A stretch of DNA of 64,000 nucleotides from Escherichia coli (GTDB lineage: Bacteria; Pseudomonadota; Gammaproteobacteria; Enterobacterales; Enterobacteriaceae), in assembly GCF_013122565.1 (NCBI RefSeq), contig NZ_CP053258.1. One strand, written 5' to 3'. Of this stretch, positions 41,184-41,747 are shown one piece after another. The number at the start of each line of letters is the position of its first letter. The first letter of the stretch is position 1. The notes under the pieces are model-generated. The model was given only the letters and a program-made list of their open reading frames with translations. It ran no database searches and was not told the origin of the DNA. The position numbers and the translations under genes are program-made.

Positions 41184-41692
41184 ATAATATGCTCTCCATT
41201 CATTGTTTTTATGTTTCCATAGAAATCAATACATCAGATAATTCATTTTGATTAAGAACGACCCAGAAAGTATATTTAAAGGTGAATGGCAAAGCGTGAT
41301 GAAGATCGCAGATTACTTTTACACCCGGGTGTGGAGGTATCGTGTTTCAAAAAGTGTGTCTATTTTAAATATCACTCATTGATTTATAGACATTTTTTCC
41401 TTATAAAAAAACACTAAATTCTGTACAAGAATATTTTGTATCTTCTATTACTTTCTCCAGTAATAACTCACCTTTCAGGTATAACTTAAATCTACTTGTT
41501 CATAATCTCAATTTTTGTAAATGAAAAGGCACATAAGAGTTAAAATAAATAATGAATTAAACATTAATTACGCAAAAATGCGAGGCGTCTTCAGGATTAG
41601 AATCGATAAAACAGAATGGGTTAAAGAGAGCGATATAATAGCGGCGGGTGCTTGAGGCTGTCTGTCTCAGGCATTAGCTGAACGGCAGATAG

Positions 41693-41747
41693 AGAAAAGC
41701 CCCGAGTGATATTTTACTATCAACCCGAGGCCTCCTATATGCAGAAC
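41693..41747 (-). ncRNA. sokC: Sok antisense RNA of the hok/sok locus (sokC)
   Basis: Position projected from the recalled K-12 sokC/mokC overlap; no independent promoter mapping. Confidence 0.4.

Follow-up and report, generated by a model that had tools for sequence, protein, structure and literature searches.

The closest described system on one side of the DNA examined here is the hok/sok toxin family, in which a weak promoter is typical. Promoters of class II that depend on CRP are the closest counterpart on the other side. At these promoters, CRP is bound near -41.5 and takes the place of the -35 element, and CRP sites with 8-bp spacers have also been described as a class. In Escherichia coli K-12, the hokC/mokC/sokC (gef/sof) locus contains an IS186 element 20 bp downstream of hokC, which parts the gene from its fbi sequence, whereas the ECOR24-type hokC is intact (PMC3562002). 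A "putative cerebroside sulfatase" module, located beside the hokC and nhaAR modules, was reported to be variable by Lescat et al. (2014; PLoS One 9:e108738; PMC4182557). They proposed that the modules around nhaAR spread by horizontal transfer and were gained and lost repeatedly.

We analyzed a stretch of 64,000 nucleotides from an E. coli chromosome (the window), with emphasis on the interval 41184-41700. The window contains the same locus and cluster as the module of Lescat et al., which is patchy across phylogroups and Escherichia clades and has a low GC content. The variable module itself is already known, and our literature searches on the operon returned only that paper. Its modules were defined by synteny breaks, and it does not give base-level breakpoints, a regulatory region, or synteny across genera. 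The new points here are the base-level breakpoints, a corrected position of the sok promoter, the cross-genus synteny, and a promoter model with an upstream box. Their significance beyond annotation is small.

The window is reversed relative to the K-12 chromosome. The gene order is nhaR, nhaA (36117-37283, minus strand), three minus-strand genes, hokC (plus strand), dnaJ (42052-43212), and dnaK. The three minus-strand genes and their own regulatory region make up the variable module (37524-41534, minus strand, 4011 bp). The first gene encodes an OmpK/Tsx-like channel (40422-41183; Pfam Channel_Tsx, 7e-14), and the second encodes a sulfatase (38909-40438; Pfam Sulfatase, 1e-58). The third gene (37535-38779, in an ORF at 37535-38815) encodes a Zn-finger protein, in which an IS1-like zinc-binding domain is the only recognizable one.

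Composition and breakpoints of the interval

The interval was described in the sequence-only reading as AT-rich and devoid of ORFs of 60 aa or more on either strand, and the ORF list, the stop-free runs, and the GC content agree with this description. The largest ORFs within 41184-41700 have 43-44 aa, and stop-free runs reach at most 46 codons. The GC content is 32.7% vs 49.3% for the whole window, which corresponds to the 3rd percentile among 517-bp windows, and its trough is located at 41398-41534 (26%). An even lower GC content (27%) is reached around 28471-28990, the minimum among the 517-bp stretches of the window. The lack of ORFs is uninformative because 56% of the shuffled intervals also had no open run of 60 codons. 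A 95-aa ORF with a TTG start (41667-41954, minus strand), antisense to mokC/hokC, overlaps just the last 34 bases of the interval. The longest stretch of the window without an ORF of at least 100 aa is 41184-42051 (868 bp), and it includes the interval. The right limit at 41700 is arbitrary because it falls within the hokC mRNA leader (41646-41798).

To locate the breakpoints, K-12 (NC_000913, 14000-19000) was compared with the window by BLAST. Three blocks were aligned: nhaR/nhaA with the nhaA upstream region (35772-37523), sokC/hokC (41535-41971), and dnaJ (41960-43350). The 12-bp overlap of the second and third blocks indicates an empty IS186 target site. A K-12 junction had been expected inside the interval, and it lies at 41534/41535. 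The opposite outcome, in which the whole segment is ancestral K-12 backbone with the breakpoint elsewhere, did not occur. Between the first two blocks, the window has 4011 bp (37524-41534) and K-12 has 74 bp. The alignment is gappy from the junction to about 41571, which leaves an uncertainty of a few tens of bases in the position of the junction.

The same junction is seen throughout the species. The backbone part of the interval, which includes the hokC upstream region (41535-41645, plus strand), is matched in 5414 of the 5426 complete E. coli genomes. The cluster-side 351 bp were found in 1273 genomes and the 74-bp filler in 4139, which together account for 5412 of the 5426. Therefore, there are two nearly exclusive states with a single junction, and the sampled cluster-less genomes all begin to match at query position 351 (41534). 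The predicted operon is present in roughly one in four sequenced E. coli, many extra-intestinal pathogens among them. Two kinds of alleles carry the cluster side. The window-type allele has at least 94% identity across all 351 bp (342 genomes). The B2-type allele (about 930 genomes) has 85% identity over 41184-41397 only, and 41398-41534 cannot be aligned. Therefore, the former part is constrained and the latter is not.

The 74-bp filler corresponds to 17175-17248 of the K-12 record (3176-3249 of L001) and is present in one copy per genome in the 4139 genomes. Its local alignments to the clusters of the window, B2, and E. albertii were no better than those of shuffled sequences, and a second copy was not found in E. 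coli genomes. We consequently rejected the filler as a relic of the cluster. Because the filler lacks similarity to the cluster, a clean deletion does not account for the K-12 form.

We consider it likely that the interval is a divergent control region made up of three parts: a predicted cluster-side promoter region, an AT-rich spacer, and hokC-side backbone. All of its components belong to known kinds. The interpretation given in the sequence-only reading was partly supported. Its K-12 junction and its promoter-like operon side were retained, whereas the sok promoter and the island as an insertion were not, as described in the sections on hokC and the dnaJ-nhaA slot.

Predicted regulatory region of the channel-sulfatase operon

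The promoter of the operon had been assigned to this interval, and the cluster-side 214 bp (41184-41397) do have a conserved, predicted promoter-like architecture. On the minus strand, the Shine-Dalgarno sequence of the channel gene (GGAGAG, 41192-41197) lies in a predicted 5' leader of about 79 nt (41184-41262). The start of this leader, near 41262, was deduced from a -10-like hexamer, TATACT (41269-41274, minus strand). The leader is nearly invariant in six Escherichia alleles including E. albertii, and the hexamer is invariant within Escherichia. Upstream of the hexamer, there is a CRP-type dyad, TGCGA-N6-TCACG (41295-41310), whose center precedes the predicted start by about 40.5-41.5 bp. 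It is followed by a 31-bp spacer (41311-41341) of fixed length and variable sequence, which contains a palindrome (41314-41339). The next element is a conserved box (box 1, 41342-41359, minus strand), a putative factor site that reads ACACACTTTTTGAAACAC in the operon sense and AACATTTTCTGACAC or CACACTTTTTGTCAC in other genera. A distal conserved block (41360-41397, minus strand; ATGTCTATAAATCAATGAGTGATATTTAAAATAG in the operon sense) ends the segment shared by the E. coli alleles. The remainder (41398-41534) is a hypervariable AT-rich spacer that is present only in cluster-bearing genomes. The dyad, the -10 hexamer, and box 1 are invariant in the six Escherichia alleles, while the spacers alongside them vary.

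The center of the dyad is located 28 nt upstream of TATACT, so that it would fall at -40.5 to -41.5 if transcription starts 7-8 nt past the hexamer. The Escherichia dyad scores 8/10 against TGTGA-N6-TCACA. It has two core mismatches, but the G and C bases on which CRP contacts depend are intact. The dyad is the sole match to TGYGA-N6-TCACR in the 64-kb window, where 0.63 matches are expected by chance. Because about one such match is expected in 64 kb, the case for the dyad is made by its conservation and geometry. The operon promoter was not called by a consensus promoter scan. This is expected for an activator-dependent promoter, in which CRP would replace the -35 element, and is not positive evidence for one.

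We propose that the dyad and the -10 hexamer form a class II CRP-type promoter. This predicted promoter resembles class II CRP promoters such as galP1 in having a TGTGA-N6-TCACA-type dyad 20 nt from TAnnnT and no recognizable -35 element. It differs from them in the extra conserved box 1, in the two core mismatches of the Escherichia dyad, and in the 8-bp spacing of the dyad in several genera. Transcription of the minus strand would start near 41262 from TATACT, with the dyad at the -35 position, and would proceed through the conserved leader. cAMP-CRP, together with an additional factor at box 1, may switch the operon on, and 41398-41534 would be an AT-rich spacer without constraint. The model, cAMP-CRP plus another factor, is testable for this uncharacterized sulfatase operon. 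If it is true, it would suggest that the operon serves the catabolite-controlled use of sulfated host or dietary compounds.

The same layout is found outside Escherichia. A scan of one genome per species gave the channel gene at 19 loci, and 12 orthologous upstream regions were compared, from Escherichia, Kosakonia, Phytobacter, Citrobacter, UBA3516, Buttiauxella, and Franconibacter. The arrangement of dyad, -10, and box recurs in front of the orthologous operons of at least seven genera. All 12 regions have a TGTGA-N6/N8-TCACA dyad at a distance of 88-111 nt before the ATG, and its score in the N6 register is 8-10 of 10 throughout; shuffled sequences reach such scores in 0.2-0.65% of cases per 300-bp region. 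The dyad is a perfect TGTGA-N6-TCACA in Buttiauxella and Franconibacter. Elsewhere it reads TGTGATAtctcTATCACA or TGTGAgatttacaTCACT, with 8-bp spacing. These forms score 8/10 in the N6 register when anchored on the promoter-proximal half-site, and just one half-site is perfect in this register. A TAnnnT hexamer follows the proximal half-site by exactly 20 nt in 10 of the 12 regions and by 19 or 21 nt in the other two. The sequence between the dyad and the hexamer varies, as is characteristic of a promoter spacer. Box 1 is 31 bp from the dyad across the genera, except in Buttiauxella (20 bp, one helical turn less). In Buttiauxella and Franconibacter, the cluster is located away from dnaJ/nhaA, and the dyad and box 1 are kept. 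Therefore, the regulatory region belongs to the cluster and not to the locus.

Alternatively, a different dimeric regulator could use the dyad as its operator, such as the Zn-finger/helix-turn-helix protein of the cluster, which would act as a repressor or an activator. The form that is best conserved, found in four genera, is an inverted repeat of two perfect 7-bp arms 4 bp apart (TGTGATA-tctc-TATCACA), which is the same as TGTGA-N8-TCACA. No other obvious regulator is encoded in the cluster, and its last gene has a DNA-binding N-terminus similar to that of IS1 InsA. However, the exact CRP core occurs in Buttiauxella and Franconibacter, every locus scores at least 8/10 in the N6 register with the proximal half-site held 20 nt from the -10 hexamer, and the Escherichia dyad has kept the G and C positions needed for CRP. 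We consider an operator of this kind improbable, and CRP is preferred as the protein that would bind the dyad.

For box 1, which is helix-phased with the dyad in every genus, we have a speculative candidate. Box 1 may be the operator of the 414-aa Zn-finger protein of the cluster, which would then be a domesticated transposase that co-regulates the operon with CRP; we give this idea little weight. Inspection of box 1 by eye for resemblance to another CRP site, to a Pho box, or to direct repeats of the ArcA type gave nothing convincing. In E. coli KE51 (L025), a natural IS1 insertion is located between the dyad and box 1, at a position equivalent to about 41320 of the window. This strain provides a ready natural test of the requirement for box 1.

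It is very unlikely that the cluster side hides a plus-strand product, either a small RNA from about 41283 to the hairpin at 41314-41339 or a 27-aa peptide. A promoter-like TTGATT-17-TATATT (41248-41276) and a terminator-like consensus match are present on the plus strand, the hairpin has a z of -2.4 in the window allele and one compensatory change (A-T to G-C) in B2, and a frame of 27 codons (ATG at 41298, MKIADYF...) is open in the window and B2 and has a 23-codon version in E. albertii. However, promoter-like matches number 3 vs 2.6 expected from shuffled sequences, the hairpin has a weak T-tract, a z of only -0.8 in B2 (not significant), and no counterpart in E. albertii or other genera, the frame is broken by early stops in other genera while the dyad and box 1 that it overlaps are conserved, and the peptide substitutions are mostly non-synonymous. 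A search of 37000-42200 against Rfam at permissive E-values gave the hok/sok leader only, and the cluster-side 351 bp had no match. We regard the palindrome and the 27-codon frame as by-products. The hairpin was also rejected as a plus-strand terminator, as it is lost from E. albertii and other genera and sits in the variable spacer. The ORFs of 43-44 aa (at 41248, 41286, and 41521) and of 27 aa (at 41298) are unconserved or broken outside Escherichia, and the one at 41521 straddles the K-12 breakpoint.

The hokC/mokC/sokC side

The hokC side of the interval consists of the backbone shared with K-12 and the beginning of the hokC transcript. The hokC mRNA leader (41646-41798, plus strand) was matched by Rfam RF01794 over model positions 1-157 with 117.6 bits (gathering score 59, E 3e-27), and the match ends on the hokC ATG. 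Because this match is full-length, the hokC mRNA begins at about 41646, and its first 55 nt (41646-41700) are inside the interval. A perfect TATAAT (41634-41639, plus strand) is located 7 nt upstream of this end and is the presumed -10 element of the hokC/mokC promoter, for which no good -35 element was found. The mokC gene (41739-41948, plus strand) has 70 codons and differs from K-12 at one residue (L2Q). The hokC gene (41796-41948, plus strand) is in the same frame, and its 50-aa product is identical to that of K-12.

The sok promoter had been assigned to the interval, but it is located elsewhere. The position and strand of sokC in K-12 (16952-17010, opposite to hokC) were taken from the RefSeq annotation and were transferred to the window through an aligned stretch that has no gaps and 2 mismatches over about 100 nt. 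The sokC antisense RNA gene occupies 41747-41689 of the minus strand, and only its last 12 nt (the 3' end) are inside the interval. Therefore, the sok promoter must be located above 41747, inside mokC. A candidate -35 element, TTGACC, is found there at 41782-41777. In 41535-41700, the plus strand would carry a weak hokC/mokC promoter and the beginning of the hokC message, and the minus strand would carry the end of sokC.

The 5' tac element GGGUGCUUGAGG (41646-41657, plus strand) pairs with an fbi-like sequence, CUUCAACGCACCC, near 41997-42010 in the predicted fold of 41646-42046. The IS186 target site at 41960-41971 is empty, and no IS186 was found between the tac and fbi-like sequences. The fbi-like sequence is thus contiguous with hokC, and the locus is intact, like that of the ECOR24 type and in contrast to the disrupted K-12 copy. 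All four features by which a hok/sok locus is defined were found in the sequence: the full-length leader, the Mok and Hok frames, sokC in its place opposite the start of mok, and the tac/fbi pairing. The toxin locus, free of IS186 and with the fbi sequence and terminator kept, looks fully functional as judged by these features. In the closest genome (NZ_LT883142), an IS421/IS186-family element occupies the site at 41960-41971.

A 24-bp element, CGCAAAAATGCGAGGCGTCTTCAG (41571-41594, plus strand), is located 50-75 bp upstream of the start of the hokC mRNA. It is almost unchanged in five E. coli alleles and is also present in K-12, and the E. albertii version has 3 substitutions; the surroundings vary. 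In the RefSeq annotations of L002, L003, and L023-L026, the 153-nt hokC ORF is named "MokC", and sokC and the leader are unannotated.

The cluster and the dnaJ-nhaA slot

In the sequence-only reading, the interval was the right-hand edge of a horizontally acquired island in a K-12-like nhaA-sokC region and held the island and sok promoters. This explanation has some support. The cluster is missing from 4139 of the 5426 E. coli genomes at one sharp junction, its GC content is 41% vs 49% for the window, and horizontal transfer with repeated gain and loss near nhaAR has been proposed (PMC4182557). However, sokC is transcribed toward the interval and its promoter is outside. The borders at 37524 and 41534 have no tRNA, integrase, or direct or inverted repeats. 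The sole mobility-related feature of the cluster is the IS1-like Zn-finger domain of the conserved 414-aa protein.

The distribution of the cluster in other genera also argues against a recent insertion. The order dnaJ-cluster-nhaA was found in Kosakonia, three species of Phytobacter, Citrobacter youngae, a Citrobacter MAG, Enterobacteriaceae UBA3516, E. albertii, and other Escherichia. The same slot is shared by five genera (Kosakonia, Phytobacter, Citrobacter, UBA3516, and Escherichia). In comparison with the window, the channel proteins are about 80% identical, the sulfatases 78%, and the Zn-finger proteins 57% (range 57-82%), and the identity of nhaA is 74%. The cluster has thus diverged much as nhaA has. 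Among the loci compared, the element restricted to Escherichia is the hok locus and not the cluster. Presence or absence at one site, as in an island, was observed (1273 vs 4139 genomes), but mobility signatures and foreignness to the locus were not. An acquired island is consequently an unlikely explanation of the interval.

We propose that the cluster is probably an old resident of the dnaJ-nhaA slot and not a recent insertion here. The shared slot and the nhaA-like divergence favor loss of the cluster in K-12-type strains, and we believe with reasonable confidence that loss, and not gain, accounts for the difference. On the most parsimonious reading, the cluster would have resided in the slot for a long time, the hok locus would then have been added between dnaJ and the cluster in Escherichia, and a single later event in K-12-type E. 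coli would have removed the cluster, with 74 unrelated bp as the filler in its place. Ancestrally, the slot probably contained the module. The low GC content of the cluster, the filler without similarity to it, and the gains and losses of Lescat et al. stand against old residency.

The Zn-finger protein is 414 aa long when read from Met at 38779, the start used by its RefSeq homologues, and it is kept in every genus with 40-85% identity. It has Cys-rich N-terminal zinc ribbons and an IS1 InsA-like Zn-finger/HTH, and its C-terminal domain has no Pfam match. It may be a domesticated transposase, possibly with an RNase-H-like core. Its AlphaFold model is poor (pLDDT 55.6). A Foldseek search against the PDB gave nothing at E <= 0.001 and weak transposase- or integrase-like entries only, and a sequence search of the PDB gave generic zinc fingers only.

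The gene content between the sulfatase and Zn-finger genes varies among genera. In the Kosakonia locus (L004, 8389-9594), a 401-aa radical-SAM protein is encoded between them, and we read it as a putative anaerobic sulfatase maturase from its motif CNLDCRYC. A gap of similar size is present between the two genes in Phytobacter, UBA3516, Buttiauxella, Franconibacter, and one Citrobacter MAG. In the E. coli alleles examined, the gap is only about 93-130 bp (38816-38908 in the window); therefore, the sulfatase would need a maturase encoded elsewhere. In E. albertii NBRC 107761 (L013, 6001-6758), the match to the channel gene is split into two overlapping parts that lie in different frames. This suggests a frameshift, and the copy is likely a pseudogene.
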